In this document: positions 14,014 through 63,173 of the stretch, in pieces | How the letters are laid out: each line of letters starts with the position of its first letter | How positions within the stretch are numbered: position 1 is the stretch's first letter | Assembly (NCBI GenBank): GCA_947594835.1 | Contig: CANQEH010000013.1 | Location: forward strand, 8,838 to 72,837 | DNA from: an uncultured Acetatifactor sp. | GTDB taxonomy: Bacteria > Bacillota > Clostridia > Lachnospirales > Lachnospiraceae | DNA length: 64,000 bases | Reading direction: 5' to 3' | The notes under the pieces: generated by a model | Databases searched by the model: none | Told to the model about the DNA's origin: nothing | Seen by the model: only the letters and a program-made list of their open reading frames with translations | Translations under genes and position numbers: made by a program

Positions 14014-14041
14014 AACGAGGCTTTCTCCTTTCACAGATTAT

Positions 14042-15275: not shown

Positions 15276-15318
15276 ATTTTACTGAAAGAATCAGCCGACT
15301 ACTCATACAAAACAAAAG

Positions 15319-16763: not shown

Positions 16764-16871
16764 CCTCCGTCCCTCCTCTCTCCTGCCGAATGGATCAGAG
16801 AGCCGCACAGAATAAGGTTTTGATGCAGCCGTCCAGGTTTTCCGCCAAAAAACATCGGATACAAGATGCAT

Positions 16872-17933: not shown

Positions 17934-18129
17934 CTGCTTCCTTCCGAATCCCGGTGGATTCCACAAACGCATACCTGACGCTCATTATACACCCAAATCA
18001 TGAAAAAAGCTACCGCCGTCCACCCAATGCCCCCCGGCGCCTCTCACACCCCTCCCCCGCCCCTTCCCCTTGCAATTTTTCATCCGGGAGCGTACAATAA
18101 AGGCAAAGAATGCTTCCGGGAGGCATACA

Positions 18130-45701: not shown

Positions 45702-45762
45702 CTTCTTCTCCTCCATTCCGTAACCTGCAAACTATGCGCCGCTTACTTTTGTGCGCTCATCC

Positions 45763-45791
45763 ATTATAACTGATACCCGCTGTGAAGTCAA
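45763..45791 (-). promoter_or_regulatory. sigma-A promoter TTGACT-17 nt-TATAAT for purCFB
   Basis: The reverse complement of 45786-45791 is TTGACT. The reverse complement of 45763-45768 is TATAAT. Confidence 0.65.
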
Positions 45792-45827
45792 TCGGGGGGC
45801 GGAGTGCGGCAAATGCTTTTGTGTGGC

Positions 45828-45906
45828 GTGTCCGGGGTTTGCATCCTGGATTTTGTGCCCAAGGGTTGTATCCGAGGTTCGCATCCGGGGTTTGTGTCTG
45901 AGTTTT
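45828..45906. repeat. array of six degenerate ~13-bp tandem repeats (G[TC][GA]TCCGGGGTTT-like) just upstream of the pur promoter
   Basis: The units are GTGTCCGGGGTTT, GCATCCTGGATTT, TGTGCCCAAGGGTT, GTATCCGAGGTTC, GCATCCGGGGTTT and GTGTCTGAGTTTT, read consecutively. Confidence 0.7.
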
Positions 45907-45983
45907 TGTTTGATTCGTGTAAATTGTTTGGAGTGACGGCCGGTTCTGCGGCGGGACGTAAAGCTGCGCCGGGCGTCCCCCTT

Positions 45984-47156
45984 CTACCCATCCTCATATT
46001 TCCCCGCCATCGCCAGAATCTCTTCGCCGTATGCGGGATAACGCTTCACGATATCCATGATCTCCCCGCGGGCTCTCCCGGCCACGCCGTCGTTGTAATC
46101 CATCTGTTTGCGCAGCGCCTGGCGGCGCAGGATCAGTTCATGGCGGATTTCCACCATCTCCCGCTTGTCCAACAGCGCTTCGGGCTGGTTCGTCCAGCGG
46201 CCCGGGTCTGCGATGTGATAATTTGACATCCTTGCCAGAAGCTGCTTCTGATAATAGTCCAGCTTGGCCTCCGCCTCCGCGTATACCTTGCGCTCCTCCT
46301 TCTCCTGCTGATACTGCTTCCAGAGCTTCTCCAACGCCTGCCCGCTCTCGGTATTGTATTTCAGGCACAGGTATTCCTGCAGGTTCTTGTTGTTCACATA
46401 TCGGATTTTTACCTTGTTCTGCAGCAGAATCAGCCGGTTCACGGCGTTGATCACCCGGTGCTTTTCCCGCTCCGCGTCCGTGTATTTGATCCAGAGCACG
46501 GTGACGGCCACTGCCGCCGCCCCGCCTGCCAGCACATATCCGATCTTGGTATTCATCTGGAAGGCAAACTGCAGCACCAAAAGCATCAGCACACAGGCTG
46601 CCAGGGCCGTCAGGAAGATAAACGCCATCCCCCGCAGGTTGTCCATCATGGTCTCCAGCTCCGTCCTGCGGTAGGCATAGGCGTGCCTTTCCCTGTCCAG
46701 CCGTTTCATATCCTCCTGCACCAGCGCGCCGTACCGCTCGCACTCCTTCAGCTTGTCGATGCCCTGCTGTATCTGGTCCTCCTGCTGCCGCAGACGGTAA
46801 TAGTCGGCATCCTTCATCCGATTCTTTTTTCCCTGATACCGCTCCCGCTCCCGGACAAAAGAAACCATCCGCCTGGCAATTCCGTTTAAGGCCTCCCGCT
46901 CCTCCTCCGGCAGGGCTTCGATCTCGTCGATGTCCGTCAGATAAGACGTCACCTGGGCATACTCGCCGCTCAACAGATCCTTTTCCCTGGCCGCGTCCGC
47001 CGCCTGCTCCAGACATTCCTCCACATACTGCCTGCGCTGGACGCTGTCGGTAAAGTCCACCTCTGAACCGTCATAGGCCACGGCGTCTTCCCAGTCCTGC
47101 CCATCACTAGCTTCCTCTGTCTTCTTCCTTCCGAACCACTTCTTCCAAAATCCCAT
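45984..47156 (-). CDS. coiled-coil membrane protein (two central TM helices), unknown function; last gene of a four-gene operon
   Basis: 390 aa. Charged heptad-like N- and C-terminal halves flank FIFLTALAACVLMLLVLQFAF and IGYVLAGGAAAVAVTVLWI. Confidence 0.75.
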   Translation of the reverse strand: MGFWKKWFGRKKTEEASDGQDWEDAVAYDGSEVDFTDSVQRRQYVEECLEQAADAAREKDLLSGEYAQVTSYLTDIDEIEALPEEEREALNGIARRMVSFVRERERYQGKKNRMKDADYYRLRQQEDQIQQGIDKLKECERYGALVQEDMKRLDRERHAYAYRRTELETMMDNLRGMAFIFLTALAACVLMLLVLQFAFQMNTKIGYVLAGGAAAVAVTVLWIKYTDAEREKHRVINAVNRLILLQNKVKIRYVNNKNLQEYLCLKYNTESGQALEKLWKQYQQEKEERKVYAEAEAKLDYYQKQLLARMSNYHIADPGRWTNQPEALLDKREMVEIRHELILRRQALRKQMDYNDGVAGRARGEIMDIVKRYPAYGEEILAMAGKYEDG

Positions 47157-47168
47157 TGCCCGCTCCCG

Positions 47169-48026
47169 TCAGTTGCCCACGCTGTTTCGATAGCCGTCCT
47201 TTAAGGCCTGGATGATCCGGTCTGCCTCCTCGTCATACTTTGACCGTTCCACGCCGCCCCGCCGCTCCCGCCTGCCGTACAAAAGGAGGTATTCCGGCTG
47301 CTTTTCCCACTCCTGTGTGAGCTTTTCCATCTCTTTTTCCAGCTCCAGGGCCTGCTCGTAATTTGCCGTCTGTTCCGCCGCAAAAGCGATATACTCCCCT
47401 TCCGTCAGCGTCATCCTCTTTGCCGCCAGATAGTCCCGGTAACAGCCCGGATCCCGGTCGGTCTGGCAGGCTTTGAAAAAGCACTCCGCCGCCCGCTCAT
47501 AGAGCATCAGGCCCGTCAGGGCCACCCCCTTGTTGTGCAGGATGGCACCAAGGCAGCCTGCCGCCGGCAGCGGCTCCCCCTTCTCCTCCGCCTCCCGCCA
47601 TTGCTCCAACAGCGCGTCGTACTCTCTGACCGCAGCCAGATATTTTTTGTTTCTGACCAGAAAGTCCACCTGGCTCTTTCTGCGCTCGATCCGGCTTAAG
47701 CCTGCCCCCTGCTTTAAGACCTGCTCCACCTCTTTCACCACGGGCTCCGGGTACATTCCCACATATCCCATGATGGTGCTCACAAAGGCGCTCAGGGAGC
47801 CCTGCCTGTGCACCAGAGGAGACAGCGCACGGGCCAGTTCCTTCAACCCGCACTCCCGCTCCATCCATCCCAGCAGCCCGTCGCTCATAAGCGACGCATC
47901 CAGCAGGAACGCATTTTCTTTCAGGCAGTAGCACAATTCCTCCATACAGTACACATTGATCTCAAGCCCCGGCACACAGTACGGCAATTTCGCATAATTT
48001 CCCACACAGACACTGACCCGCATCAT
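47169..48026 (-). CDS. hypothetical cytoplasmic protein, helical/TPR-like C-terminal half
   Basis: 285 aa. The start overlaps the upstream stop (ATGA). No recognisable catalytic motif. Confidence 0.7.
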   Translation of the reverse strand: MMRVSVCVGNYAKLPYCVPGLEINVYCMEELCYCLKENAFLLDASLMSDGLLGWMERECGLKELARALSPLVHRQGSLSAFVSTIMGYVGMYPEPVVKEVEQVLKQGAGLSRIERRKSQVDFLVRNKKYLAAVREYDALLEQWREAEEKGEPLPAAGCLGAILHNKGVALTGLMLYERAAECFFKACQTDRDPGCYRDYLAAKRMTLTEGEYIAFAAEQTANYEQALELEKEMEKLTQEWEKQPEYLLLYGRRERRGGVERSKYDEEADRIIQALKDGYRNSVGN

Positions 48027-49315
48027 GATACCCCTTCATACAATTCAATCCGTTCCTTCCAGACCCGTCTGGAAGAAGGGCGGAACTCCCCAAAGCCCAG
48101 GTCTTTGACTTCCACCGCCAGCACATTCTCCGCCTCCAGGTAAAAGTGCACCCGCACGCGCCCAATGTCCCCCGGGAAGCCCTCCAGGCTGATCCTGGCC
48201 TCTTTGCCGCATTTCCCGATGAGGGGCGTCACCCGCACTGTGATCTCACTGCCGTCCTGTACATAAAACTCTGCGGTGTGATCCGCCTCATACCAGTTGA
48301 TCCCTGCGTCCAGGGCCGCGTAATAGGACGCCTCCCCCTGCCGGAACACCTGCATCCCGATGTTTGCCTTTAACCTGTCGTTTCCCAAAAAGACGTGCGC
48401 CTTTCCCGCCGGGCTGGGATTTAACCGCTCCTGCATCCCATAGCAGGCCCCTTTCCCAAACAGGTTGTTGCCCTGGAAGACCCTGCGTCCCCTGCACAAA
48501 AATTTTAGGGAATCCTTCATCCACTCCTGTGAAAAGCCGTCCCCAATGAGGTAGACGCTCTCCACGTTCTCCCCCATCTCACTCTCCGCCAGGCGCAGGA
48601 AAGCGGCGTCCAGCTCCTGGGAGCGCTTCTGCCTTGCCCCAGGCTCCTGGGGCAGCGGCTCCCATGCGTAGAAAGGATGGGCCGTCTCACGGATAAAGGC
48701 CGCCACCGGCGTAGTCCGGCGGTTGCACTCCATCTGATATGCCCGCATACAATTTCCCCGGTAATCAAACAGCATGGAGCTTCTTGCCCAAAGCTCCCGG
48801 GGCTGGCGCAGCATATAATTGTAATAGCTCTCCGTGTGGCTCTGAAAGAACACCTTGTCCGTTTTTAAGTGGACGGCCGCCACCATCTGGTTCAGCACTT
48901 CCAGCACCCTGCCGTCCACCATCTCGCAGGTAATCATCAGCGCGCCGATGCGCTCCGTGGAAGCCGCCTGGCTCAAAAGCCCCAGACTCCTGCGGAAAAA
49001 CAGCGCTAACAGCGCCGCCGGCTCATAGCTCTCCCCCTCGATGAACACGGTTTCCCCGTCCAGGGCCTGCCCAAACAGGTTTTCTATCAGGATCCCCTGG
49101 TTTTCCTCCGCATAGCGCAGCGCTTCCTTGCCGTAAAACCACTGGTTTGCTCCCGGCCTTTTGCAGAGCACCGCAGGGATATTGTATTCCTGCGCCCCGG
49201 CCACCTGGGAGACGGTCTCCACTTCCCCGCTGTCGGAAAAGGCATAGCTGATCTGGCAGGTTTCATTGCCAAGGTCATATCCCACAATCAGTTTTTCACC
49301 GCCAAACAATGCCAT
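48023..49315 (-). CDS. hypothetical protein with Hsp70/actin (ASKHA)-fold-like N-terminus and a beta-rich C-terminal domain
   Basis: LIVGYDLGNETCQISY resembles the phosphate-1 DxG strand of Hsp70/actin ATPases. VYLIGDGFS resembles the adenosine motif. I recall similar Firmicute proteins carrying a DUF5716-type label but cannot verify that. Confidence 0.65.
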   Translation of the reverse strand: MALFGGEKLIVGYDLGNETCQISYAFSDSGEVETVSQVAGAQEYNIPAVLCKRPGANQWFYGKEALRYAEENQGILIENLFGQALDGETVFIEGESYEPAALLALFFRRSLGLLSQAASTERIGALMITCEMVDGRVLEVLNQMVAAVHLKTDKVFFQSHTESYYNYMLRQPRELWARSSMLFDYRGNCMRAYQMECNRRTTPVAAFIRETAHPFYAWEPLPQEPGARQKRSQELDAAFLRLAESEMGENVESVYLIGDGFSQEWMKDSLKFLCRGRRVFQGNNLFGKGACYGMQERLNPSPAGKAHVFLGNDRLKANIGMQVFRQGEASYYAALDAGINWYEADHTAEFYVQDGSEITVRVTPLIGKCGKEARISLEGFPGDIGRVRVHFYLEAENVLAVEVKDLGFGEFRPSSRRVWKERIELYEGVS

Positions 49316-49330
49316 GTGTCTTCTCTCCCG

Positions 49331-52300
49331 CTATTTTAACCGAAACAGATGCCCGTTTAAAAAGTCCTTCCGATAGTATTCCTCCAGCAGGTTGTCCATG
49401 GTGTCCATATCCTGCATGGAGCGGCTGATCACAATGTCGTTGATCAGCTGGAAACGGCTCTCCTGCCCGTCCATGCGGATATCGTTCTTCTGCCGGGAGC
49501 CGCTCTCCGTCAGCTGTGGCTCCTGCCCGTCCATCTCCTCTGTGATGTAATACTGTAAGGTCTCCCCGAAGAAAAGGATAAACTCCTTAAAACATACCCC
49601 GCCGTACACCTCCCGCATATACTCGGAGGTATACTCCTTCGCACCGCCGTCCCCGCTCTCAATCACATAGTGGATGCAGGCCCTGCTGCCGGGTGCGGCC
49701 CGGTATTCGATCAGCGTCTTGTCCGCCAGCTCCTGCTGTACCTGGGGCAGCCTGCTGTACGCCTGAAAGAAAGACAGGTGGATCCCCTCCGCCAGAAACT
49801 CCAGCAGGAAGTCTTCCGCCAGGCGCTGCGCCTCCTCCCCAAGGATCCCCTGATTTTCGGAACAATACTTTACAAAGGCCAGCTTGCAGACCCTCTGGAC
49901 AGGCTCCCCCCGCAGGTACATATTCTGGATCTCCTGAAACACTTCCTGTTCTGTGAGCCGCTCCTTGACAAAGTAACCATAGGCGCACTGTGCTAAAAAC
50001 GCCTCCTCCACCTCCGCCTTCGCCCCCTGGGACAAATAGTAGCGGAAGATATCCATCTTTTCCCCCACAAAGGCGCCGGTGTAAAGCATCTGCACCAGAA
50101 TCCTCTCGCTTAACTTGTAACAGTCCACGCCAAAAGAGCGGGCCGCTTTCCAGACGTCCCTCAGCCCCTTGATCCTCCCCCGGTCATACATGGCCAGATA
50201 CGCAAGCACCACGCCGTCGTACTTCCCCCGCTGGAACGCATGAACCGCCGCCGCCGTCAGCATCGGATCTTCCATCATATGATTTTTTTCCATCATGGGG
50301 CTGATCAGGCGCACCAGCACCTTGGGATCCACAAAATAGGGGCCGTAAGTGTCCAGCCACTGCCTGGCCAGCTGGTGCTGCCCCCGCATGACCATGTACT
50401 GGATCACGCTGCCCCGCTCCTCCACGGTCAGCTCCTCTGCCGGAATCCGTCCCAGAAACCCGTCCAGGGAACGCATATCGTCGGCCTCGTAATAGCAGTG
50501 CATCACCTTTAGGTACAACTCCCGCCTGAGAGCCTGCGAGGCACAGCCCGAAGCCAGCACCCGCAGGCCCCGGTCGATGCGCTCCCTCAGACTCTCCTGT
50601 TCCTCCCGTCCGGCGCCGCACAGATAGATATCAAGCGCCGGGCTCTGCTCCAGATAAGGCAGCAGAAGCCGCAGATAGTGTCCCGGGCGCATCAGCTTTT
50701 CCAGGGTATACTCTGCCGTGGGGATAAAACGATTGCCCCAGGCGTCCTCCAGCACAATGGTATATTCGCTGCCGTACAGCGCCACCCAGGCCTGGCAGTC
50801 CCCCAGCGCATATTCCGCAGGCTGCAGATTCCCGGGCTGGTACACATATACCTTTTTCAGCCTCTCGTCCTCCACCTGAATGAGATGGGCAAACAAAAGC
50901 CTGGAGAGGGGCCCGCAGGTATCCTTATTGATCATGCCGGGCTGCAGCAGCTTGTTGTACAGATCCGCCAGAGGCCGGTTGATATGCTCCCTGCGGATCT
51001 GATCCAGCACGAAATACTCCATCCTGGGCCGGTAAGCTTCCGCGATCTCCCCCAGCTTCTCCCCCTGTTGTAAGATATAATCGTACAGATAAGCCGTGTG
51101 CTCATAGTCCAGATTGTTCTGATAAGAAAAATACATCAGGACAGTCCTGGGGATTTCCTGGGGAACCTTCAGATCCAGGGACATCATATAGTACTCAAAC
51201 AGATTGGTGATGCGGAGTCTTTCGCCCACACCGGCCTGATACCAGGGAAAATACTGCTTCCCCGCCCTGCCGCCTTTGATGAGCAGGGTACAGATCTCCT
51301 GCAAAATCCGCACATCACCCTTTTTCCGATACAGCGCAGCCAGAATCCGAAACAGCGCCGGAGTAAACTCCCGCACCTTTCCCGCCAGATACAGGATCTG
51401 CTCTGTCACCTCCTGACGGATCAGCTCCTGTTTTGCCGCATACCAGAGAATCTGCTGTTCAAACCTTCCCAGCTTGCGCAAAAGCGCCGGGTTGCTGTGA
51501 AGCAGCGCGATGGCCTCGATATAGAGGATGGGACTGGTGCATCCCGTGTCAAACTGCCGCTCTAAGAACACCCATTTCCCCGCCGCCGACTTCTGGTAAT
51601 CCCGGGACAGGTACAGAAGCAGCCAGGCTGCCCGCCAGTTGGCGTCGTCCTGGCGGTAGATCTGTTCCACCTGGGCCGTCACCCGGTTCACATACTCCTC
51701 CTCCGGGTGGATCAATGTGGTTAAGTACAGATAATAAGCCGTCAACGCCTCGTCCGCATTTTTATCCCGCTCCAAAAGCTCCGCCACATGATCCAGAATC
51801 CAGCCGGCCTCGTGATACCGCTCCTCTGTGATGAGCATCTGGGCCTGCAGAAGCCGGGCGCCCGCATCGTTTTCATTCCTGTCCACCAGGCGCTCCACCA
51901 AAGCCCCCGACTCCTTCAGCCAGACGGCGGTGCTGATCTTTTTGGCGCGGAACGCCAGATAGAGGCGCATCAGCTGTACCTGGGCCCGCTTCCGCGAAAG
52001 GGCAGTCTTCCTCTGGCCGTTTCCGTCCCCGCACTGTACCGTCACCGGGATGACCAGGGACACATAACAATTGTACAGGCGGATTTCTCCGAAATTCCGG
52101 CCCTTCCGGCATCCGGCCCCATCGATAAAGACCGGCAGCCTGCAGCGGTTTCCCAAAAAATCGTCGTCAGTGATGAGCTCTTTCTCCGCAAACAAAAAGC
52201 TGCCGTTTAACTCCACGGAGAGCTGAGTAAATCCCCAGCCGTTGCGCACAATGCCGATCTCCCGCTCCGCCACGTCCCCCGGGCCGAATTCCGGCCCAAA

Positions 52301-52909
52301 CTCCAGGGCCATCTGGTCTTCCTCCAGCAGATATTCCACCTTCTGCTTTTTGTTGGCCTGGATCAGAAATTCCTCCACCTGCTGTTCCGATCCGGCATAG
52401 ACGGACAGGGCCCGGTAGGCCTCCGCATACTGGGTATCCCTGCCGGAAAAAATCCCCGCAAACCGCGGCGAGTAAAACAACTTCACCGCCTCCGCCCAGT
52501 CGGTTTTTGCCAGATTGGCAAAATGGAACAGATTTTTGATCACCCCCACGGAAGAATCCAGCGTGTCGTACTCTACGGTGGCCACAAAGGGCAGATAATA
52601 TTCCCCCTGATTGCTGATCACGGAAAAATTTCCCTTTACCACGTCGCCTTCCTCCAGGTGTTCCCCGTGGAAGCAGTAGAAAATCTCCTCCTGAGACCCC
52701 ACAAACTCTGCAGTCAGACATTCCATGCGAAGATCCGAAGACAGCACCGTGCCGTTTGCATAGACTCCCTGGGGCGCATAGAGGAAGAAAGATCCCTCGC
52801 ACTGCTCCCCCCGTTTCAGCGTGATTTCTATTTTTGAACAGGAGAAATCCAGGGATCCGTTTTCATAACAAAAATCCCCCTCCAGAATCTGATCAATGAC
52901 CTGTCCCAT
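49331..52909 (-). CDS. 1192-aa hypothetical protein: two N-terminal beta-sandwich-like modules, ~800 aa of helical repeats, C-terminal beta module
   Basis: Trimmed to the ATG at 52909 (GAGGAGAAGCGGGAGAG upstream). No signal peptide or TM helix. I recall DUF5717-type labels on similar Lachnospiraceae proteins but cannot verify that. Confidence 0.7.
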   Translation of the reverse strand: MGQVIDQILEGDFCYENGSLDFSCSKIEITLKRGEQCEGSFFLYAPQGVYANGTVLSSDLRMECLTAEFVGSQEEIFYCFHGEHLEEGDVVKGNFSVISNQGEYYLPFVATVEYDTLDSSVGVIKNLFHFANLAKTDWAEAVKLFYSPRFAGIFSGRDTQYAEAYRALSVYAGSEQQVEEFLIQANKKQKVEYLLEEDQMALEFGPEFGPGDVAEREIGIVRNGWGFTQLSVELNGSFLFAEKELITDDDFLGNRCRLPVFIDGAGCRKGRNFGEIRLYNCYVSLVIPVTVQCGDGNGQRKTALSRKRAQVQLMRLYLAFRAKKISTAVWLKESGALVERLVDRNENDAGARLLQAQMLITEERYHEAGWILDHVAELLERDKNADEALTAYYLYLTTLIHPEEEYVNRVTAQVEQIYRQDDANWRAAWLLLYLSRDYQKSAAGKWVFLERQFDTGCTSPILYIEAIALLHSNPALLRKLGRFEQQILWYAAKQELIRQEVTEQILYLAGKVREFTPALFRILAALYRKKGDVRILQEICTLLIKGGRAGKQYFPWYQAGVGERLRITNLFEYYMMSLDLKVPQEIPRTVLMYFSYQNNLDYEHTAYLYDYILQQGEKLGEIAEAYRPRMEYFVLDQIRREHINRPLADLYNKLLQPGMINKDTCGPLSRLLFAHLIQVEDERLKKVYVYQPGNLQPAEYALGDCQAWVALYGSEYTIVLEDAWGNRFIPTAEYTLEKLMRPGHYLRLLLPYLEQSPALDIYLCGAGREEQESLRERIDRGLRVLASGCASQALRRELYLKVMHCYYEADDMRSLDGFLGRIPAEELTVEERGSVIQYMVMRGQHQLARQWLDTYGPYFVDPKVLVRLISPMMEKNHMMEDPMLTAAAVHAFQRGKYDGVVLAYLAMYDRGRIKGLRDVWKAARSFGVDCYKLSERILVQMLYTGAFVGEKMDIFRYYLSQGAKAEVEEAFLAQCAYGYFVKERLTEQEVFQEIQNMYLRGEPVQRVCKLAFVKYCSENQGILGEEAQRLAEDFLLEFLAEGIHLSFFQAYSRLPQVQQELADKTLIEYRAAPGSRACIHYVIESGDGGAKEYTSEYMREVYGGVCFKEFILFFGETLQYYITEEMDGQEPQLTESGSRQKNDIRMDGQESRFQLINDIVISRSMQDMDTMDNLLEEYYRKDFLNGHLFRLK

Positions 52910-52965
52910 TCCCACTCTCCCGCTTCTCCTCTGTACCATTCATGACCCGTCCAGGCTTCTATTCC

Positions 52966-52994
52966 ATTATAGCAAACAATGGATAACAGGGCAA
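52966..52994 (-). promoter_or_regulatory. sigma-A-type promoter TTGCCC-17 nt-TATAAT for the four-gene operon
   Basis: The reverse complement of 52989-52994 is TTGCCC. The reverse complement of 52966-52971 is TATAAT. Confidence 0.5.
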
Positions 52995-53142
52995 ATCATT
53001 TCTGAGGGAGGCACCTTTTGAAAAAGGCCGCATATCTATACCATAAATGCAATACGCCGCAAAACCAAAACCACCCGCCGCGCTGCCGGAAAGCGCCGCA
53101 GCCCCGGGTGCAAGCCGCCAAAAGGCAGATCGAGAGGTAACT

Positions 53143-54414
53143 ATGCCAAACAACCAGTTAACGGCCGCCCAGGAATCCGGCGCCTCCTCAAACGGTTCCC
53201 TCAGAGTCAGCGTGACGTCGTCCCTCGGAAGGGTTCCCGTCCCAAACGCCTCTGTCACCATCTCCTACACCGGGGATCCCGGGGAGCCGCTGATGCAGCT
53301 TTCCACCGACAGCTCCGGCCAGACGCCTTCCGTGGAACTGCCCGCGCCTCCTGTGGAGCTTTCCCAGGAGCCGGAGAACGAGCTCCAGCCCTATTCGGAA
53401 TACAACATTCTGGTAACGGCGGAAGGCTATGAGCCGGTGCTCATATCCGGCTCGGAACTCTTCGCAGGGGAACTTTCCCTCCAGCCCGTCCGCCTGATGC
53501 CCCTGGAAACAGAGGCGGACGCAAACCAGATAGTGGTCATCCCCGCCCACACGCTGTTTGGGGATTACCCGCCCAAAATCCCCGAGGAGGAGATCAAGCC
53601 CATCGCGGAGACCGGGGAAATCGTCCTGAGCCGGGTGGTCATCCCGGAATATATCATTGTGCACGACGGCGTGCCAAACGACGCCACCGCCCAAAACTAC
53701 TGGGTGCGCTACCGGGACTATATCAAGAACGTGGCCTCCTGCGAGATCTACTCCACCTGGCCGGAAGCGGCGATCTACGCCAACATCCTGGCGATCATGT
53801 CCTTTACCTTAAACCGTGTCTACACGGAGTGGTACCGAAACCAAGGCTACCCTTTTACCATCACTTCCTCCACGGCCTACGACCAGAAATGGGTTTACGG
53901 CCGAAATATCTTCCAGAACATCGACAGACTGGTGGATTCGGTGTTTGCCAACTACCTCTCCCGGCCCGGCGTGCGTCAGCCCATCTTCACCTCCTACTGC
54001 GACGGACAGCGGGTCACCTGCTCGGGGTTAAGCCAATGGGGCTCCAAATACCTGGGAGACCAGGGGTATTCCGCCATTGAGATCATCCGCTATTACTACG
54101 GCAGCGATATGTATATCAACACCGCCGAGGCCATATCCGGCGTGCCCTCCTCCTACCCGGGGTACGACTTGAACATCGGCGCCTCCGGCGACAAGGTCAG
54201 GCAGCTCCAGTCACAGTTAAACCGCATCGCCCGCAACTACCCGGCCATCCCCACCGTCGCAGCGGACGGGGTCTACGGCTCCCAGACGGCGGAAGCCGTC
54301 CGCATCTTCCAGGGCATCTTCGACCTGCCCCAGACCGGCGTTACGGACTATCCCACCTGGTACGAGATATCGGAAATCTATGTTGGCGTATCGCGGATCG
54401 CAGAGCCGGGATAA
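53143..54414 (+). CDS. sleC: spore cortex-lytic enzyme SleC-like (N-terminal pre/pro region, SpoIID-like catalytic core, C-terminal peptidoglycan-binding domain)
   Basis: Trimmed to ATG 53143 (GAGAGG SD), giving 423 aa. YPPKIPEEE, VIPEYIIVHDG, EIYSTWPEAAIYANILAIMSFTLNRVYTEWYRNQGYPFTITS and the PG_binding_1-like end GVYGSQTAEAVRIFQGIFDLPQTGV match clostridial SleC as I remember it. Confidence 0.75.
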   Translation: MPNNQLTAAQESGASSNGSLRVSVTSSLGRVPVPNASVTISYTGDPGEPLMQLSTDSSGQTPSVELPAPPVELSQEPENELQPYSEYNILVTAEGYEPVLISGSELFAGELSLQPVRLMPLETEADANQIVVIPAHTLFGDYPPKIPEEEIKPIAETGEIVLSRVVIPEYIIVHDGVPNDATAQNYWVRYRDYIKNVASCEIYSTWPEAAIYANILAIMSFTLNRVYTEWYRNQGYPFTITSSTAYDQKWVYGRNIFQNIDRLVDSVFANYLSRPGVRQPIFTSYCDGQRVTCSGLSQWGSKYLGDQGYSAIEIIRYYYGSDMYINTAEAISGVPSSYPGYDLNIGASGDKVRQLQSQLNRIARNYPAIPTVAADGVYGSQTAEAVRIFQGIFDLPQTGVTDYPTWYEISEIYVGVSRIAEPG

Positions 54415-54473: not shown

Positions 54474-55148
54474 TCAGTACACCGCCTCACCGGTGTGTGC
54501 CATAACTGTGACAGAGATAACGCCTTCAACCTCATTTAACTCACTCAGCAAAGATTCGTAATCCTTTATACGTATCTCCATCAAAAAATCTACATTTTCT
54601 TTGGTCAGGTTTCTGGACTTGACAGTATAATGTCTATCATACTTTTCTACCACTTGATACACACGAGGCGCACACGCATTGCTCTTTGCGTTCACCACAA
54701 GCAACATGGACTTTCTTAATTCTGGAAAACGGTAGAAAACCAGTACAAGCACTGTTGCCCCCAGAGACAGCGCCAATGCCAATCCAGGCATTCCGGCACC
54801 ACATATGATTCCCACACTGATACTCCAAAACATGAAAATTAAATCCAGCGGATTCTTTACCGCAGTCCGAAAACGCACAATGGACAATGCACCCACCATA
54901 CCCAAAGACACTACCACACTGCTCTGAATCGCCAAGATGATTGCCGCTGTGATCACGCACATCAGAATCAAGGAAACATTAAAACCCTTGGAATAAAATG
55001 TATTGACAGTAACGACCCGATACACAAAGAAAAGATAAATTCCCAACAGTCCTGCCACAAGTAACAAAAGCGTCACTTCTTTCATGGACAAGCTGGTATT
55101 CTGAAATCCTTGCAAAAACGATTTTTTAATGACATCCTGAATGCTCAT
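54474..55148 (-). CDS. DUF4956-domain membrane protein (copy 2)
   Basis: Trimmed to ATG 55148 (AAGGAG SD). LSIVRFRTA segment and the same TM + soluble-tail layout as copy 1. Confidence 0.8.
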   Translation of the reverse strand: MSIQDVIKKSFLQGFQNTSLSMKEVTLLLLVAGLLGIYLFFVYRVVTVNTFYSKGFNVSLILMCVITAAIILAIQSSVVVSLGMVGALSIVRFRTAVKNPLDLIFMFWSISVGIICGAGMPGLALALSLGATVLVLVFYRFPELRKSMLLVVNAKSNACAPRVYQVVEKYDRHYTVKSRNLTKENVDFLMEIRIKDYESLLSELNEVEGVISVTVMAHTGEAVY

Positions 55149-55159
55149 TTTCGACTCCT

Positions 55160-55855
55160 TTACGTCATTGCGTATTTTCTGCACAGCACATATTTTGAAA
55201 AACTCGTACGGCTCATCTGCTGTCCGGCGGCCAGCAATTCTACAATAAAACTGGGCAGAATCTCATCAAATTTCACTTCCAGAAGCTGTTCCCCCATCAA
55301 AAAGATTCCTCTCCGCTCAATGGTCGGCTCCAAAAAGTGCTCTGTGCCAAATCCAGAACAAATATTTCGGTCAAAGGTAATTCTTACATTTCCAATATTG
55401 AATAGATATGGCGTCCGGGTATATTCTACCATAACTTTGGGTGTGAACAATTCCGTTCTTTGTTCCAGCAAAAACCTTTTCAAAAGTTCCTGCCCATCCT
55501 TTACATCCGAAACAGGCTTACCTTTGATCAGGCTCTCGCACTGATGCTTTGAAATTCTGCAGATTTCCTTTGCCTTCATTCCGCGAACGGAATGCTTGCA
55601 TTCCAGCTTTATCATTTCCGGGCATCCGTCATAGATACGTATGCGATATTTTTTCCGATTGTCTGTCCCATCCATCCCCTCTTGGAAACAGCAGTCATCA
55701 TATGTGTCAAAATACAGGCTCCGAATCTCGTAATTACCCTCTGGCCCCACATAGGGATCTAACCTGCACAGATGACGTATCTTATTCTCCATAAGCATAA
55801 GACTGTTTTCGTCACAAATAAATTTCCATTCATGTCGATAGCGCAGCGTTTCCAT
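55160..55855 (-). CDS. VTC-domain (polyphosphate-polymerase-like tunnel fold) protein (copy 2)
   Basis: YRHEWKFIC (RxExKF), RSLYFDT, KKYRIRIY, LLEVKFD and SFSKY are the same strand signatures as copy 1. Confidence 0.8.
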   Translation of the reverse strand: METLRYRHEWKFICDENSLMLMENKIRHLCRLDPYVGPEGNYEIRSLYFDTYDDCCFQEGMDGTDNRKKYRIRIYDGCPEMIKLECKHSVRGMKAKEICRISKHQCESLIKGKPVSDVKDGQELLKRFLLEQRTELFTPKVMVEYTRTPYLFNIGNVRITFDRNICSGFGTEHFLEPTIERRGIFLMGEQLLEVKFDEILPSFIVELLAAGQQMSRTSFSKYVLCRKYAMT

Positions 55856-55871
55856 CCTCTTTGTTTTCTCC

Positions 55872-57908
55872 TTAAGGCGTATCGGTACTTTCTGCTTCTG
55901 CCTGCTCCTGCATCATCTCCAGCCGATCGGCAAACTGGCGTATGATTTCCGAATCGACCTGTGAAGCCTCTTGTCCAGACATTGCAAGACCATTCTGCAA
56001 TAAAACATCCATTTCAATCCATTCTGATCGATAAACAGCATTTTCCAATATTGGGAGCCTGCTGTTAAATAACGCATTGCTTTCCACATTTCTCCACCCC
56101 GAAAAAATCGCAGCGTAGGTTGTAATCACAGGGGCATTTTCAAGATATTCTCCTTTTTTTACATTGTATTTTTCATAAACATTTCCTTGATAGTCCAAAA
56201 ATGTAATGGTACAATACTCTTCGCCATCCAGCCAGACATCTTCCAGATATTCTGCTTTCTGCTTCAGAAAATTGATGAGAGCATCTCTGCTTGTATCAAA
56301 ATCAGAATAATAGCCATATACACCAGGCCAGCGTATACCATCCATTTCAGCCGATTCCTTTACCACAGCGCTCGTCCGATAAATATCTGCTCCGGCCAAA
56401 TACTTAGCATAAGGCAGATATAGCTGTTGAAACTGGTCGTAAACCTGGTCTCGTACCTCCTGATATTGCATCATTTCCTGTACATAAATGCCGAAATTTC
56501 CCAACTGTCTGGGATCATCCAGCCAAAATTTCTTCGCTCCATAGCTTCCCATAGTTCTGTCATAATCCCACATAGGCCCGGAATAGATATGAGTATCTAT
56601 ACTATCACAATCCTTATAAAAATACATACTGTTTGAGACAACGTCCGGATTATGAAACATTTCTTCCATCAAATATTTTTGGATCCAGGAATCCACGTCC
56701 AGATATTCCGAAAAATGTCTGCCGGTCCCAGGATGAATTCCATCCTCCTGATGAAATGCCAGTTCCAGTTCATTAAACTGGCCACATATATACTGGGCCT
56801 GTTCTACCGTAGCAGGATTGGGGCTGACAATCTGATAGCAATTTCCACCTTCTGTCATAAACGCATTTGTTTCGTCTTCATAGATATGTGCGGGGATATG
56901 CCTCACTAAATATCCACCTGTGATATCTTTCGGATTAACCAGTCCGCTCGTTGCCTTTATTTTCCCATCCTCAGATACATACAGGGCCGCAGTATCGTAT
57001 GTATCTTGTCCGTTAATTTTTTCTGTGGCTTCCTCCAAATTTGTAATATTTAAACGTTTGTCAGATATCTCAATTTTTTCACACAAATAATAATTGCCAA
57101 CATAATCTCCATTTAAATACAGATCCACAAATCTTCCCTGAATAGACGGTACTTCCGTATAGTTTTCTGCAAAGCGAAATATTATGTCGTTCTTTATCAG
57201 GGAATCATCCAGCATATCGGCAAGCAAAATCCATTTTTCTGCCAAAGGCATATCTAAAAGCCCATATCCCTTTTCCAGCTTGATCTGATAGGACTTCTTT
57301 TCCATTTCGTAGAAAGAAGAACTGCCACGCGCCTTGATATATTCAAGTTGTCCGCAATATTCATTGTTTCCGTCTATTCCAATTAAGGCTACAGATGCCG
57401 GCTCTTTCACTTCTTTGTCTGCATGGATTCTTTCCATGCTCCCAGATGCAGTCTCAATAAAAAGGGCTGGGATTTCTGCGGACTCCAAAAAAACAATTTG
57501 TCCGGATTCCGGATCCGTGCCTTCCTGTCCAGAATAAAATTCTAATTCATACGTTTTGGAATATTCCAGATGTTCGATCACAGCATTCGAAGCCGTAAAA
57601 ATTTCCGCATCCAAGCGAACTGATGAACCTTCACCCAAATTACAGAACCTGACCTCCCAGTGATCAGAGCCTGTAGGCAGGAAAAAATAAAATACCCCCC
57701 CGTCTCCCTGCCAGATATGCAGTTTCTGAGTCCCCCCCGGAAACCCAACACTTACCTCCAATTGAGTACAAGTTTCTGCCGGAATGGAATCGACGCCATA
57801 CTTTCTGCTTGACCAGAAAAGAAAAACTGACATTGCAGCAGCCAAAGCAGCTGCACAAAGCAGAGAAGACACGATCACTGAACGTCTTTGTGACATATTC
57901 CTATCCAA
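55872..57908 (-). CDS. membrane-anchored CotH kinase family protein
   Basis: N-terminal TM helix VIVSSLLCAAALAAAMSVFLFW. CotH-type core (VDLYLNGDYVGNYYLCEKIE, GPMWDYDRTMG). The start may be the TTG at 57908 or the ATG at 57896. Confidence 0.8.
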   Translation of the reverse strand: MDRNMSQRRSVIVSSLLCAAALAAAMSVFLFWSSRKYGVDSIPAETCTQLEVSVGFPGGTQKLHIWQGDGGVFYFFLPTGSDHWEVRFCNLGEGSSVRLDAEIFTASNAVIEHLEYSKTYELEFYSGQEGTDPESGQIVFLESAEIPALFIETASGSMERIHADKEVKEPASVALIGIDGNNEYCGQLEYIKARGSSSFYEMEKKSYQIKLEKGYGLLDMPLAEKWILLADMLDDSLIKNDIIFRFAENYTEVPSIQGRFVDLYLNGDYVGNYYLCEKIEISDKRLNITNLEEATEKINGQDTYDTAALYVSEDGKIKATSGLVNPKDITGGYLVRHIPAHIYEDETNAFMTEGGNCYQIVSPNPATVEQAQYICGQFNELELAFHQEDGIHPGTGRHFSEYLDVDSWIQKYLMEEMFHNPDVVSNSMYFYKDCDSIDTHIYSGPMWDYDRTMGSYGAKKFWLDDPRQLGNFGIYVQEMMQYQEVRDQVYDQFQQLYLPYAKYLAGADIYRTSAVVKESAEMDGIRWPGVYGYYSDFDTSRDALINFLKQKAEYLEDVWLDGEEYCTITFLDYQGNVYEKYNVKKGEYLENAPVITTYAAIFSGWRNVESNALFNSRLPILENAVYRSEWIEMDVLLQNGLAMSGQEASQVDSEIIRQFADRLEMMQEQAEAESTDTP

Positions 57909-59821: not shown

Positions 59822-61924
59822 TTATTTTGTCAGCAGCATCATGATATCGTTGCTTCTGGCAATAAAGCGGGTCATGGCGTCCGAGGCAAGCGGTGCGTGC
59901 TGGAGCCTTGCCAGGTCATAGAGCTGTTCGCAGATCATCTCCACGTTTTCCCCTTCCTGATGCTCCATCACATACTGTACCAGCGGATGGCTGGCGTTTA
60001 AGATCAGCGTCTCGCCCTCGCCGCCGAATGTTCCCATGTCCATTCCCGGCATGGAGTACATCTTCATCATATCCTGCATCCTTCTGGTCTCCTCCGAAAG
60101 GGTGAGCACAGAGGATATTTTCTTGTTTTTCAGCTTCTCCACCTTGATGGCGATCTTGTCGTTCTTCAGCGCCTTCTTCATGATCTTGGCGATGGCCTGG
60201 GCCTGCTCCTCCATCTCCTTTAACGCCTTCTGGGAAGTCTTGGACTTCAGCGCGTCCGTCACGTCCGCGTCGATGCGCTGGAACTTAACGCCCTGGTTCT
60301 TGGCCTCCAGCTGGGAGATAAAGGGCTGGTCGATGTTGTGGGTCAGGATCACCGCGTCCATCTTGGCCGCTTTAAACATATTGATGTACTGGCTCTGCTG
60401 CCGCTCGTCGGTGACGTAGTAGATGACTTTCTCTTTCTTTTCTTCCCCGTCTTCCGGTAGGTCCTCTCCCTCTGCCTTGTCCTCTTCCTGCTCTGACGTC
60501 GGGGAGACCACTTCTGCCTCCACCTTTTCGCCGTTTTCATCCACCGCTTCCCCGGCGCTCTCTTCCTCGTCCTGGGGCTTGATGTCCAGACATTCGGGCA
60601 GCGTCAGATACTTGCCCTCCAGATTCTTAAACAGGATGTAGTCGTTCATCTTCTCGCAGAACTTGTCGTCCCGCAGGCAGCCGAACTTGATGAAGGGGCT
60701 GATGTCGTCCCAGTACTTGTCGTACTCCTCTTTTTCCGTCTTGCACATCCCGGAGAGCTTGTCCGCCACCTTCTTGGTGATATACTCGGAAATCTTCTTG
60801 ACAAAGCCGTCGTTCTGCAGGGCGCTGCGGGACACATTTAAGGGCAGATCCGGGCAGTCGATGACGCCCTTTAAGAGCAGCAAAAACTCCGGGATCACTT
60901 CCTTGATGTTGTCCGCAATGAACACCTGATTGTTGTACAGCTTGATGGTTCCCTCGATGGACTCGTACTCCATGTTGATCTTGGGGAAGTACAGGATGCC
61001 CTTTAAGTTGAAGGGATAGTCCATGTTCAGATGGATCCAGAACAGCGGCTCCTTGTAGTCCTGGAAGACCTTCCGGTAAAACTCCAGATACTCCTCTCTG
61101 GTGCAGTTGTTGGGGTGCTTCGTCCAGAGGGGCTCCGTCTCGTTCAAAAGCTCAGGGCGCCTGCGTATCTTGAGTTTCTTCGGCTCTGCCTCCTTGCCTT
61201 CCTCCCCTTCTTTCTGCTCCGGCAGGATCTCCTCCAGGACGACGTCGTCCTCTTTCTTTTCGTCCTCCCTGATGATCTGGGTCTCCTTGGTGTCCGCCTT
61301 GGACAGATAGATTTCCGTGGGCATGAAGGAACAGTACTTCTTGATCACTTCCCTGGCCTTGTACTCGTTGCAGAACTCCAGGCAGTCTTCGTTTAAAAAC
61401 AGCGTGACGGACGTGCCCACTTCCTTCCTGTCCCCTGTCTCCATGGTAAACTGGGTGCCGCCGTCGCACTCCCAATGCACCGGCTCCGCCCCCTCCTTAT
61501 AGGAGAGCGTGTCGATGTGAACCTCGTCCGCCACCATGAACGCGGAATAAAAGCCCAGACCGAAATGGCCGATGATCTGGTCGGCGCTGCTCTTGTCCTT
61601 ATATTTTTCAATGAAGTCCGTGGCCCCGGAAAAAGCGATCTGATCGATGTATTCGTCCACTTCCTCCGCCGTCATGCCCAGGCCGTTGTCGGTGAAGGTA
61701 AGGGTCTTTGCCTCCGGGTTTACCACCACGTCTATTCTGGCGCGATACCCTTCCGGCAGGGTATATTCCCCCATCATGTCCAGTTTTTTGAGCTTGGTCA
61801 CCGCATCGCATCCGTTGGAGATCAGCTCCCTGTAAAAGATGTCGTGATCGGAATACAGCCACTTCTTGATGATGGGAAAAATATTTTCGCTGTTGATGGA
61901 TAAGCTTCCAGTCTTTGCTGCCAT
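59822..61924 (-). CDS. htpG: molecular chaperone HtpG (Hsp90)
   Basis: Trimmed to ATG 61924 (AAAGGAG SD). IFPIIKKWLYSDHDIFYRELISNGCDA and GHFGLGFYSAFMVA (GHKL ATPase). Confidence 0.95.
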   Translation of the reverse strand: MAAKTGSLSINSENIFPIIKKWLYSDHDIFYRELISNGCDAVTKLKKLDMMGEYTLPEGYRARIDVVVNPEAKTLTFTDNGLGMTAEEVDEYIDQIAFSGATDFIEKYKDKSSADQIIGHFGLGFYSAFMVADEVHIDTLSYKEGAEPVHWECDGGTQFTMETGDRKEVGTSVTLFLNEDCLEFCNEYKAREVIKKYCSFMPTEIYLSKADTKETQIIREDEKKEDDVVLEEILPEQKEGEEGKEAEPKKLKIRRRPELLNETEPLWTKHPNNCTREEYLEFYRKVFQDYKEPLFWIHLNMDYPFNLKGILYFPKINMEYESIEGTIKLYNNQVFIADNIKEVIPEFLLLLKGVIDCPDLPLNVSRSALQNDGFVKKISEYITKKVADKLSGMCKTEKEEYDKYWDDISPFIKFGCLRDDKFCEKMNDYILFKNLEGKYLTLPECLDIKPQDEEESAGEAVDENGEKVEAEVVSPTSEQEEDKAEGEDLPEDGEEKKEKVIYYVTDERQQSQYINMFKAAKMDAVILTHNIDQPFISQLEAKNQGVKFQRIDADVTDALKSKTSQKALKEMEEQAQAIAKIMKKALKNDKIAIKVEKLKNKKISSVLTLSEETRRMQDMMKMYSMPGMDMGTFGGEGETLILNASHPLVQYVMEHQEGENVEMICEQLYDLARLQHAPLASDAMTRFIARSNDIMMLLTK

Positions 61925-61968
61925 TGCTACCACTCCTTTTTGATTTGATGTGACATCTGACTACATCC

Positions 61969-62088: not shown

Positions 62089-63138
62089 CTAGGGAAAATA
62101 CTTCTCATACACCTCAAAAAAACTGGTGGTGGAGATCCCCTCCCCGTGCGCCAGGGCCACCTGGCCCCACAGTTCTTCATTCAGGCTCTTGTCCAGAGTC
62201 TCCACAAAGGCGTCGTACTCCTGGCCGAACACCTCACGCCTGCGCTCCTCCACGATCTGCAGCTTGTTGGCGTCCGTCTGCTCCCTGTCAAACGTGTTGA
62301 TACATTTGATGATGTGGTAGCCGTCGCCGCTCTCCACCACCCGGCTGATTTCGCCTGTCTCCAGAGAAAAAGCCGCCTCCTCGAAGGCCGGATCCATCTC
62401 CCCCTTTCCGAAGGAACAGGTGATTGCGGCGTCCCCGCTGTAGCGCGAGGCAAGATCCAGGAAGTCCTGCTCTCCCGAGACGGCCATCTCCCTGATTTCC
62501 TGGGCTTTTTCGTATACCGCCGCCTTTGCGTCGTCCGTGTAATCCACCCGGTTCCCCGCGCCGTCTGTGACATAGGTGGGCAGGAAGATGTGCTGAACCG
62601 TAATGGTGCGGGCCTCGTCGTCGCTGATCTCCGGGTTGATGTCCTGAATGATATACTCATACACCTTGTCCGCCAGGGCGTACTCCTCATACATCCGGCC
62701 AAGGAGCTCCTGGCTGACTCCCGTCAGCTCCACCTCCGCCTGGCTTAAGGACTGGAAATACTCCGCCGCGGCCTGGTTTACCTTTGCCTGCTCTTTCTCG
62801 CTTAAGCCCACTTCCTTGTCCAGGGCCAGCAGATACATGGTCTTGACCTGGGCGATCCTGGCCAGCGCCATGTCCTTCACATTCTCCTCCAGGGTAACGC
62901 CGTCTAAAGACACCTCCCACACCTGGGGGCCGTACACATTCTCATACTTGTCCTGGGTGTTGATCAGATACACCATCATCTCCGGCAGCGTGCAGGCCGC
63001 GCTCCCGATCCGGAACACCTCGTCCTCTCCCAGGCCGGTGGTGAACACCACCCGGGGGCTGCCGCAGGCGCAGAGACACCCCGGAAAAAATGACAATACA
63101 AGCAGCAGGGTCAGAAAACGCCTCCCGACCCTGCCGAT
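62089..63138 (-). CDS. PrsA-like lipoprotein peptidyl-prolyl isomerase (PpiC/parvulin type); start codon uncertain
   Basis: RRFLTLLLVLSFFPGCLCACGS is a signal peptide with a lipobox. Parvulin domain (ITVQHIFLP...GEISRVVESGDGYHIIKC). The track ORF's first ~75 codons overlap ilvE and are not credible, and there is no ATG/GTG/TTG in frame near the signal peptide. Confidence 0.7.
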   Translation of the reverse strand: MGRVGRRFLTLLLVLSFFPGCLCACGSPRVVFTTGLGEDEVFRIGSAACTLPEMMVYLINTQDKYENVYGPQVWEVSLDGVTLEENVKDMALARIAQVKTMYLLALDKEVGLSEKEQAKVNQAAAEYFQSLSQAEVELTGVSQELLGRMYEEYALADKVYEYIIQDINPEISDDEARTITVQHIFLPTYVTDGAGNRVDYTDDAKAAVYEKAQEIREMAVSGEQDFLDLASRYSGDAAITCSFGKGEMDPAFEEAAFSLETGEISRVVESGDGYHIIKCINTFDREQTDANKLQIVEERRREVFGQEYDAFVETLDKSLNEELWGQVALAHGEGISTTSFFEVYEKYFP

Positions 63139-63173
63139 CCCTTTTTGATTCTTTTGTTCCCCTCTGCCGCCCC

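Follow-up and report, generated by a model that had tools for sequence, protein, structure and literature searches.

What kind of system is encoded by four tightly packed genes for which an earlier note, based upon the DNA sequence alone, suggested a membrane-tethered ATPase or scaffold machine? The genes lie on a stretch of 64,000 nucleotides (nt) from an uncultured Acetatifactor sp. (positions 8,838 to 72,837 of the forward strand of contig CANQEH010000013.1, assembly GCA_947594835.1), which is referred to here as the window. They are four consecutive genes on the minus strand, named g1 to g4 in operon order: g1 (52909-49331; 1192 amino acids (aa)), g2 (49315-48023; 430 aa), g3 (48026-47169; 285 aa) and g4 (47156-45984; 390 aa). 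The results described below indicate that g2 is, by its predicted structure, a two-domain Hsp70-like protein lacking the lid, that it forms with g1 and g3 an ancient conserved core, and that the four products may together constitute a complex at the membrane. The open reading frame (ORF) listing and a direct reading of the junctions agree with the coordinates, spacing, overlap and promoter given in the earlier note: g1 and g2 are separated by 15 nt, g2 and g3 share an ATGA stop/start overlap, and g3 and g4 are 12 nt apart, with purine-rich GGGAG-type ribosome-binding sites found 5' of g1, g2, and g4. An in-frame ATG at position 52939 would make g1 longer by 10 codons; as the Pfam match and the homologues begin at the Met encoded at 52909, the latter position is taken to be the correct start.

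At the sequence level, g2 is a member of the Pfam family DUF5716_C (PF18980), which it matches over aa 125-425 (E = 1.6e-91; 306.8 bits versus a cutoff of 34.7), and all 71 diverse homologues also match this family. No match to Pfam HSP70 was found for g2 or any of the 71 homologues even at E = 1, nor to MreB, FtsA, actin or FGGY at E <= 1, while PDB sequence searches with g2 and with the family profile gave nothing usable and NCBIfam gave nothing for g1-g4. The AlphaFold2 (AF2) model of g2, constructed from an alignment of 71 sequences of 28-80% identity, has a predicted local distance difference test score (pLDDT) of 95.1 and a predicted template modelling score (pTM) of 0.92. When this model was compared with the PDB by Foldseek, 520 matches were obtained at E <= 1e-3, the best of them with E = 5.8e-20 and a probability of 1.00. 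The best 50 matches are all from the Hsp70 family (DnaK, Hsc70, BiP, mortalin, Ssb, Ssz1, and Sse1) and cover the nucleotide-binding domain as well as the beta-sandwich, with alignments that span more than 500 columns. The top query template modelling (TM) scores (0.57-0.58) were observed for the domain-docked "stimulating-state" DnaK structures 7kru, 7krv, and 7krw.

The model and the Foldseek alignments divide g2 into a nucleotide-binding-domain-like part with a degenerate active site (aa ~8-306; 48398..49294, minus strand) and a sandwich resembling the beta part of the substrate-binding domain (aa ~307-425; 48041..48397, minus strand), which is all-beta in the model and is followed by no alpha lid. 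The second part begins with a hydrophobic stretch resembling the Hsp70 interdomain linker (HVFLG, aa 307-311; family consensus Y-V-F-L-G). The last beta strands of the chain are at aa 418-424 and the stop follows at aa 430, so that the alpha-helical lid (SBD-alpha) is absent; most of the homologues terminate in ...IELY. On the basis of this model, g2 is not just actin-fold-like but a two-domain Hsp70-like protein without a lid. The resemblance to Hsp70/actin-fold (ASKHA) proteins that had been proposed from the sequence is thus structurally real and can be made more specific, and the C-terminal half that had been described as beta-rich corresponds to a C-terminal third that is all-beta in the model.

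To compare individual residues, the sequence of Escherichia coli DnaK (checked against PDB DnaK chains) was aligned to the g2 family profile by hhalign; as this mapping is weak, the equivalences given here could shift by a few positions and are provisional. The position of DnaK D8 corresponds to D14 of g2, where D or E is found in 69/71 sequences, and that of the phosphate-1 glycine G10 to position 16, where G is present in 32/71. The positions of T11 and T12 (g2 17 and 18) are variable, with mostly N or D at 17 and E commonest at 18. The catalytic K70 aligns with E78 (D in 26, E in 20 and K in 5 of the 71 sequences), E171 approximately with S159 (S in 33, D in 16 and T in 8), and D194 with position 184 (D or E in 51/71). 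The GGGT hairpin of phosphate-2 falls at about positions 186-189, where the loop is one residue shorter and G187 is present in 18/71, whereas in the adenosine motif the glycine at position 258 is invariant in the 71 sequences. The residue E162, located ~3 residues C-terminal to the place where E171 would be expected, is nearly invariant (64/71) and might substitute for E171. From these alignments, a canonical ATPase cycle of the Hsp70 kind appears unlikely for g2, which may be a pseudo-ATPase or bind nucleotide as a ligand. The description of this protein as an ATPase is hence doubtful, since neither the positions aligned to K70 and E171 nor the Gly-rich phosphate loops are conserved across the 71 sequences.

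The partner encoded immediately after g2 is a small protein consisting of a conserved N-terminal domain of ~100 aa, for which there is no known relative, followed by tetratricopeptide repeats (TPR; aa ~110-205, 47412-47699 on the minus strand) and a helical tail. In g3 itself the TPR_1 match (aa 162-192, E = 4.9e-4) lies under the Pfam cutoff; TPR families were matched in 5/13 diverse homologues, and the g3 family profile matches consensus TPR structures at E = 5e-6. Weaker matches of the profile (E = 0.002-0.3) are to STI1, Tah1, SGTA, PP5, and RPAP3, which are TPR co-chaperones that bind Hsp70 or Hsp90. Three residues of g3 (K117, N165, and R204) are invariant or nearly so and, by their positions, are candidates for a carboxylate clamp. 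A direct connection between g2 and g3 is provided by gene fusions, which were seen in eight of the top 150 g2 clusters (50% identity) as proteins of 685-765 aa; one fusion cluster has 1109 member sequences. In two of these clusters, P0123 and P0170, the extra C-terminal half was verified to be g3 (47% and 34% identity, respectively), and in fusions of this type a linker of ~14 residues joins the g2 beta-sandwich to g3, placing g3 at the position of the lid in Hsp70. It is almost certain that g2 and g3 act as one unit, and from its place at the Hsp70-lid position g3 probably serves as a cap or regulator of the beta-sandwich or as a docking site for another subunit. With regard to docking, a conserved acidic tail is present in g4 and not in g2, and that the TPR of g3 docks an acidic C-terminal tail is speculation on our part.

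The first gene of the operon encodes a giant protein that scores far above the gathering thresholds of PF18984 and PF18983 (949 and 333 bits, respectively, versus a cutoff of 25), with full coverage of both models; these correspond to DUF5717_N (E = 2.4e-285) and the C-terminal DUF5717 (E = 1.5e-99). The labels DUF5716 and DUF5717, which the earlier note had suggested, are thus both correct, with g1 carrying DUF5717_N and DUF5717 and g2 carrying DUF5716_C. The AF2 model of g1 (pLDDT 84.1, pTM 0.61), constructed from 30 sequences of 53-74% identity, is of usable confidence. According to DSSP on this model, the protein begins with an N-terminal module (52031..52852, minus strand) in which two beta-sandwiches (aa 20-112 and 192-293) are joined by a helical linker. 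This module is followed in the model by two helical solenoids (aa 297-671 and 745-1061; 49727..52021, minus strand), with a small beta domain (aa 674-738) between them, and then by a C-terminal beta-sandwich (aa 1064-1140) and a helical hairpin (aa 1154-1191; together 49337..49720, minus strand). The earlier description of beta-rich ends around helical repeats was therefore right but incomplete, as it did not include the beta domain between the two solenoids. For the first ~290 aa, the best Foldseek matches are chains of the ciliary central-pair apparatus (E ~2e-6 over ~290 columns), and weaker matches are to the tandem immunoglobulin (Ig) domains of titin (E ~1e-3) and to Sap S-layer domains (4e-4). 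The solenoids match TPR/HAT scaffolds such as Ski3 (4buj), Naa15 (5nnp), and Ctr9 (7dkh), with E values from 1e-5 to 1e-3, and also TFIIIC (tau131), subunits of APC, and SPINDLY; within the first of them, aa 334-416 show a weak sequence match to the SRP72 TPR. The model thus indicates an architecture of Ig-like beta-sandwiches combined with a TPR/HAT-like solenoid scaffold.

The fourth gene encodes the only membrane protein of the operon. In a Kyte-Doolittle analysis two hydrophobic segments, at aa ~173-203 and ~205-223 with a very short loop between them, form a transmembrane (TM) hairpin (aa ~173-223; 46488-46640, minus strand), whereas g1-g3 have no such helices: no 19-residue window in them, N-termini included, exceeds 1.6. 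This agrees with the earlier statements that only g4 has TM helices, two in number, and that g1-g3 have no signal peptide. From its N-terminus, g4 consists of a basic segment (MGFWKKLFGRKK-like), a charged helical arm, the TM hairpin, a C-terminal arm, and an acidic tail with the consensus [DE][KR]Y[ED][DN]x. The C-terminal arm contains two motifs, NKLILLQNKVKIRYVNN and REMVEIRHxLIxRRQxLRKQMDYN, that are strongly conserved in the homologue alignment, and the proposed two-helix membrane anchor is upheld by the hydropathy together with these conserved arms. Given the short loop and the lack of a signal peptide, the two arms are expected to face the same side of the membrane, presumably the cytoplasmic side where g1-g3 reside. 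No relatives of g4 were found in Pfam, NCBIfam or the PDB. More than 2000 homologues exist, and among the 120 listed none has a Pfam domain and the sole name is "hypothetical protein." When 12 homologues were searched against Pfam, the weak matches obtained (DUF2207_C, SLATT_5, LapA_dom, and others) were rejected as scattered single occurrences arising from noise in the TM region.

The g2 family is large, with 2119 matches in a database clustered at 90% identity and 1129 clusters at 50% identity (E <= 1e-3), and in a pattern scan with one genome per species relatives were present in at least 525 stretches. When the proteins of the window were compared by tblastn with 80 related loci, g1-g2-g3 were collinear in 80/80 and g4 was present in 74/80. 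Of the six loci without g4, three (L066, L069, and L070) have purB or purC straight after g3 and the other three end at a contig edge. More distant loci were reached through g2 representatives that are 28-41% identical to that of the window. Four of these have the same gene order as the window, with products of 1178-415-274-392 aa (L081), 1207-408-275-395 aa (L082), 1187-427-287-383 aa (L085), and 1193-429-285-391 aa (L086); in L083 (1175-685-394 aa) g2 and g3 are fused, and in L084 (1100-424-271 aa) the contig ends. All four products of L081 are homologous to those of the window at 23-28% identity. A further locus from Candidatus Merdenecus (L087) has g1-g2-g3 but not g4; in this locus, as in L066, L069, and L070, the gene directly 3' of g3 is either a pur gene or one for an ABC substrate-binding protein. 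The four genes are thus conserved together, with the order kept also in the distant loci, and g1-g2-g3 is an ancient, vertically inherited core to which g4 is a frequent but dispensable fourth member. All named members of the family are from Lachnospiraceae (Acetatifactor, Waltera, Candidatus Merdenecus, metagenome-assembled genomes labelled Roseburia, and "Lachnospiraceae bacterium"). Three loci labelled Bacteroidales, Odoribacter splanchnicus, and Bacteroidaceae (L074, L075, and L078, respectively) have the same layout and identity as that of Waltera hominis (L073) and are probably mis-binned Lachnospiraceae contigs.

Upstream of g1 is a sigma-70-type promoter (TTGCCC-17-TATAAT; 52994..52966, minus strand) with an extended -10, the TG being upstream of it. 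The element TTGCCCT...TTTGnTATAAT is kept 5' of g1 in 51/72 related loci, from which it follows that the match is not a random one. By its sequence the g1 promoter is of the sigma-A type with an extended -10, and this type, together with its conservation, argues for vegetative or constitutive expression. There is also no excess of terminator-like sites within the operon (6 versus 7.2 expected from shuffled sequence) that would point to internal termination.

The reading of these results that we prefer, although we hold it tentatively and would place it somewhat short of probable, is that the four products form one cytoplasmic, membrane-associated complex of the holdase or assembly type, observed to date only in Lachnospiraceae, in which g2 and g3 constitute a peptide clamp, g1 a platform, and g4 a tether. 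At its core would be g2, a divergent Hsp70 paralogue that has kept the fold of the nucleotide-binding domain and the peptide-clamping beta-sandwich but lost the lid and the residues for hydrolysis. Its obligate partner would be the small TPR protein g3, made by translational coupling and in some species fused to it. The 1192-aa g1 would act as a platform binding clients or partners, and g4, where it is present, would be a hairpin with two conserved cytoplasmic helical arms that anchors the assembly at the membrane's inner face. Such an assembly would most likely work as a peptide clamp on a scaffold, with nucleotide at most a conformational ligand and not the fuel of a fast DnaK-type ATP cycle.

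Several observations weigh against this interpretation. The g2-g3 fusion is the sole direct sign of complex formation. The fold matches of g1 are generic, with TM scores of 0.07-0.16 throughout, which indicates a shared architecture and not a family relationship. The alignment of the g2 profile with DnaK is weak (hhalign probability 14%, E = 0.0019), although it agrees with the secondary structure, and the active site is so degenerate (D/E at the K70-aligned position in 46/71, S/D/T at the E171-aligned position in 57/71, and the phosphate-2 glycine in 18/71) that even nucleotide binding is uncertain. Lastly, g4 is absent from the locus in L066, L069, L070, and L087, which means that membrane tethering is not obligatory; the earlier characterization of the system as membrane-tethered holds with respect to the two-helix anchor of g4 but is not universal, since at least four related genomes lack this gene at the locus. 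A bolder formulation, which we consider rather doubtful, is that DUF5716 represents an unrecognised Hsp70 branch, a non-hydrolysing clamp whose TPR lid is provided in trans or by fusion and which is carried on an Ig/TPR scaffold at the membrane, the whole being a Lachnospiraceae-specific assembly machine that is possibly tied to spores or germination by its linkage with sleC.

That linkage is one reason to consider a machine for sporulation or germination, handling for example SleC itself or proteins of the cortex, coat or forespore membrane, an explanation which is compatible with the proposed architecture but which we regard as unlikely. The flanking gene (53047-54414, plus strand, outside the operon) is, as had been stated, divergent from g1 and it encodes a true spore cortex-lytic enzyme SleC: its product carries PG_binding_1 and matches the "Spore cortex-lytic enzyme pre-pro-form" in PDB 9h68 with E = 4e-131 (query aa 43-453 to residues 54-475). 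In 64 related loci a sleC gene is found upstream of g1 at a distance of no more than 5.8 kb. These include the distant L083, where it is 186 nt upstream on the same strand and g1 is 32% identical to that of the window, and of the loci whose upstream sequence extends beyond 4.5 kb only three are without it. The presence of a CotH gene nearby in the window and the restriction of all named family members to Lachnospiraceae point in the same direction. Against this, the conserved promoter is of the sigma-A type and shows no sign of sigma-E, -F, -G or -K or of any sporulation-specific sigma factor, so that the sporulation role suggested earlier gains no support from the promoter. The orientation of sleC also varies (58 divergent and six on the same strand) and the median gap to g1 is 2.36 kb; in L004 an ABC (ATP-binding cassette) ATPase/permease pair occupies the gap. 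The idea that the operon is always next to sleC is therefore true only in a loose sense, as sleC is near in 64 loci but usually ~2 kb away with other genes in between. Further, purB, purF, and purC are about equally conserved neighbours, so that the block may simply be inherited synteny, and the CotH-VTC-DUF4956 genes belong to an island of low GC content which the related loci lack at this place. The linkage with sleC is thus not operonic, but as judged from these gene arrangements it is persistent enough to keep a role in sporulation or germination alive.

The other explanations concern the biochemical nature of the system. In a classical ATP-driven chaperone, g2 would be a fully active Hsp70-type ATPase that folds or translocates clients by cycling between its ATP and ADP states, with g3 and g1 as co-chaperone or exchange factor; this corresponds to the ATPase machine of the earlier note. 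The full two-domain Hsp70 fold of the g2 model, the acidic residue at the D8 equivalent in 69/71 sequences, the near invariance of E162 and the invariant G258 of the adenosine motif, the linker-like HVFLG between the two domains, and the weak resemblance of the g3 profile to STI1, Tah1, SGTA, and PP5 would all fit such a chaperone. We nevertheless judge it to be quite improbable, because the K70-aligned position is Asp or Glu in 46/71 sequences and Lys in 5/71, the E171-aligned position is mostly Ser, Asp or Thr, the phosphate-1 glycine is present in 32/71 with no Thr-Thr after it, and the phosphate-2 loop is one residue shorter and unconserved. In addition, no J-domain or GrpE-like gene was found in the operon when g1, g3, and g4 were searched against Pfam and NCBIfam, and Pfam HSP70 is not matched by any of the 71 family members at E = 1. 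An actin-like cytoskeleton, in which g2 would polymerise in the manner of MreB, ParM or FtsA with g1, g3, and g4 linking the filaments to the membrane, could draw upon the ASKHA fold, the phosphate-1-like strand GYDLG of g2, and the presence of a membrane anchor with helical arms. It is very improbable, as the 50 best structural matches of g2 are Hsp70, Hsp110 or Ssz1 chains with a beta-sandwich and include no actin-like filament former, the g2 family has no Pfam matches to MreB, FtsA or actin, and we know of no counterpart of the C-terminal beta-sandwich of g2 in MreB, ParM or FtsA; the cytoskeletal role that had been suggested is thus without specific support. Least credible of all is a defence or conflict system, or the cargo of a mobile element. 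An uncharacterised multi-gene operon with TPR and ATPase-like components might bring such a system to mind, as might the one viral contig out of 2.9 million scanned in IMG/VR that carries operon genes. However, no PADLOC family was matched by any of the four proteins at E <= 0.1, Pfam revealed no effector-like domain in g1-g4, the operon has a GC (guanine plus cytosine) content of 0.57-0.58 like most of the window, and the context is stable over more than 80 loci, with pur genes downstream and sleC upstream. The viral contig (L088; IMGVR_UViG_3300029230_000168, 1-9239) has g1 and g2 at the extreme end of its 42.7 kb, where they are probably host DNA flanking a prophage. The inference from composition that the operon belongs to the core genome and not to mobile DNA is hence strengthened by the PADLOC and viral-contig results, and the profile searches overall assigned to the four proteins no known function of an unrelated kind, but only DUFs and a sub-threshold TPR.

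Some additional features of the flanks of the operon deserve mention. In two close relatives (L004 and L005), the TTGCCC...TATAAT motif was not found in the 160 nt scanned 5' of g1. In L004 the ABC ATPase/permease pair ends ~140 nt 5' of g1, and g1-g4 may thus be co-transcribed with these transporter genes. In many related loci the g1 promoter is inside a covarying 12-bp hairpin, the 5' arm of which begins in the -35 (GCCCTnnG...); TTTGnTATAAT is contained in its 15-nt loop, and a T-run comes after the 3' arm. In 14 hand-picked sequences, 89% of cells pair as compared to 30-44% with slid partners, five pairs change on both sides and 0/500 shuffles reach the score, these counts being biased as the loci (including L008, L014, L025, L031, L041, and L066, and further L047, L024, L013, L035, L070, and L032) were picked by eye. 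The hairpin looks like a terminator of an upstream ABC permease gene on the same strand, with the promoter inside it; in the window, this permease gene is absent, the hairpin repeat is degenerate and there is no T-run. At the other end of the operon, no intrinsic terminator is recognisable after g4 (45717-45983, minus strand), for which reason read-through into purC, purF, and purB is possible; a strong purC promoter (TTGACT-17-TATAAT; 45791..45763, minus strand) is present 3' of g4.

Downstream of the operon the window has purC, purF, and purB, and most of the related loci have these genes in one combination or another; with both flanks conserved the whole region represents a synteny block. 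Genes for HtpG (Hsp90) and a PrsA-like peptidyl-prolyl isomerase (PPIase) are found 7-10 kb upstream on the same strand as the operon (59822-61933 and 62089-63363, minus strand). The htpG gene recurs at the upstream edge of eight related loci (including L061, L067, L072, L073, and L086) with variable genes between; a functional link to the operon was not adopted, as this variability led us to read the arrangement as inherited synteny, but the occurrence of htpG and PPIase genes near an Hsp70-like operon is worth remembering. The stretch at 54474-57908 (minus strand), which contains the DUF4956, VTC-domain, and CotH kinase-like genes, has a GC content of 0.41-0.47 as compared to ~0.57, and may be an acquired island. 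The 80 related loci do not have these genes here; weak VTC or DUF4956 matches were seen in five of them and CotH in none. A second, larger region of low GC content (0.39-0.50) is located at ~6000-18000, far from the operon.

No relevant paper on DUF5716 or DUF5717 was found by name or topic in the library searched, and their accessions are not mentioned there at all. The component folds are known, and g1 and g2 belong to catalogued DUFs, so that the system is not categorically new. What appears to be undescribed in the searchable literature is the identity of DUF5716 as an Hsp70 without a lid and with divergent catalytic residues, its coupling to a TPR protein or fusion with one, and likewise its place in a conserved module whose other members are a giant Ig/TPR scaffold and a hairpin anchor, in all cases seen within one bacterial family. 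Lachnospiraceae are among the most abundant commensals of the human gut, and some of the protein clusters have thousands of members in public metagenomes (4031 for P0533 and 2931 for P0511); yet two of the four products are known only as DUFs and two are without any family. Regarding g2 as a lid-less Hsp70 with a TPR partner makes an anonymous operon testable in terms of nucleotide, peptide clamping, and a membrane complex. If correct, it would provide a bacterial example of an Hsp70 remodelled into a specialised, possibly pseudo-enzymatic subunit, comparable to Ssz1 in the ribosome-associated complex of eukaryotes. If the operon were functionally linked to SleC, it would also bear on spore germination and hence on the transmission of gut Clostridia.

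In comparison with catalogued families, g1 and g2 are full-length, high-scoring members of DUF5717 and DUF5716, entries that carry no function, whereas g3 and g4 belong to no family. With the TPR/HAT scaffolds (Ski3, Naa15, Ctr9, APC subunits, and TFIIIC tau131), which are superhelical platforms cradling partner subunits, g1 shares its alpha-solenoids by fold. It differs from them in that the TM scores of its solenoids are 0.09-0.16 with no sequence relationship, in having three additional Ig-like beta-sandwiches and a small mid-chain beta domain, and in its occurrence in bacteria, with all named members seen belonging to one family. The TPR co-chaperones (Hop/Sti1, Tah1, SGTA, PP5, and CHIP) are resembled by g3 in its TPR repeats, with weak profile matches (E = 0.002-0.3), and in its physical coupling through fusions to an Hsp70-like protein. 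However, the individual matches are below significance, only the consensus TPR proteins reaching E = 5e-6, g2 ends in ...IELY and has no EEVD tail, and g3 has an extra conserved N-terminal domain of ~100 aa.

The closest comparison is that of g2 with Hsp70/DnaK. The genes that accompany g2 are those for a TPR protein, a giant scaffold, and a membrane anchor, with no J-protein or GrpE gene in the operon. The g2 protein has 430 aa as compared to ~610-640 aa, with no alpha-helical lid or C-terminal tail and a nucleotide-binding domain of ~300 aa instead of ~380 aa; it differs further in the lack of a sequence-level HSP70 match and in that conservation is missing at the positions which align with the catalytic Lys and Glu and in the Gly-rich phosphate loops. 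What it shares with these proteins is a two-domain layout in which the beta-sandwich comes after an actin-like nucleotide-binding domain (Foldseek E = 5.8e-20, probability 1.00), a GxDLG N-terminal strand, an adenosine-like LxGDG motif, and a hydrophobic stretch between the domains. Atypical Hsp70s are also found among its structural matches, namely Ssz1 and the Hsp110 protein Sse1; Ssz1 is an atypical, poorly hydrolysing Hsp70, and HscC is another atypical member of this family.

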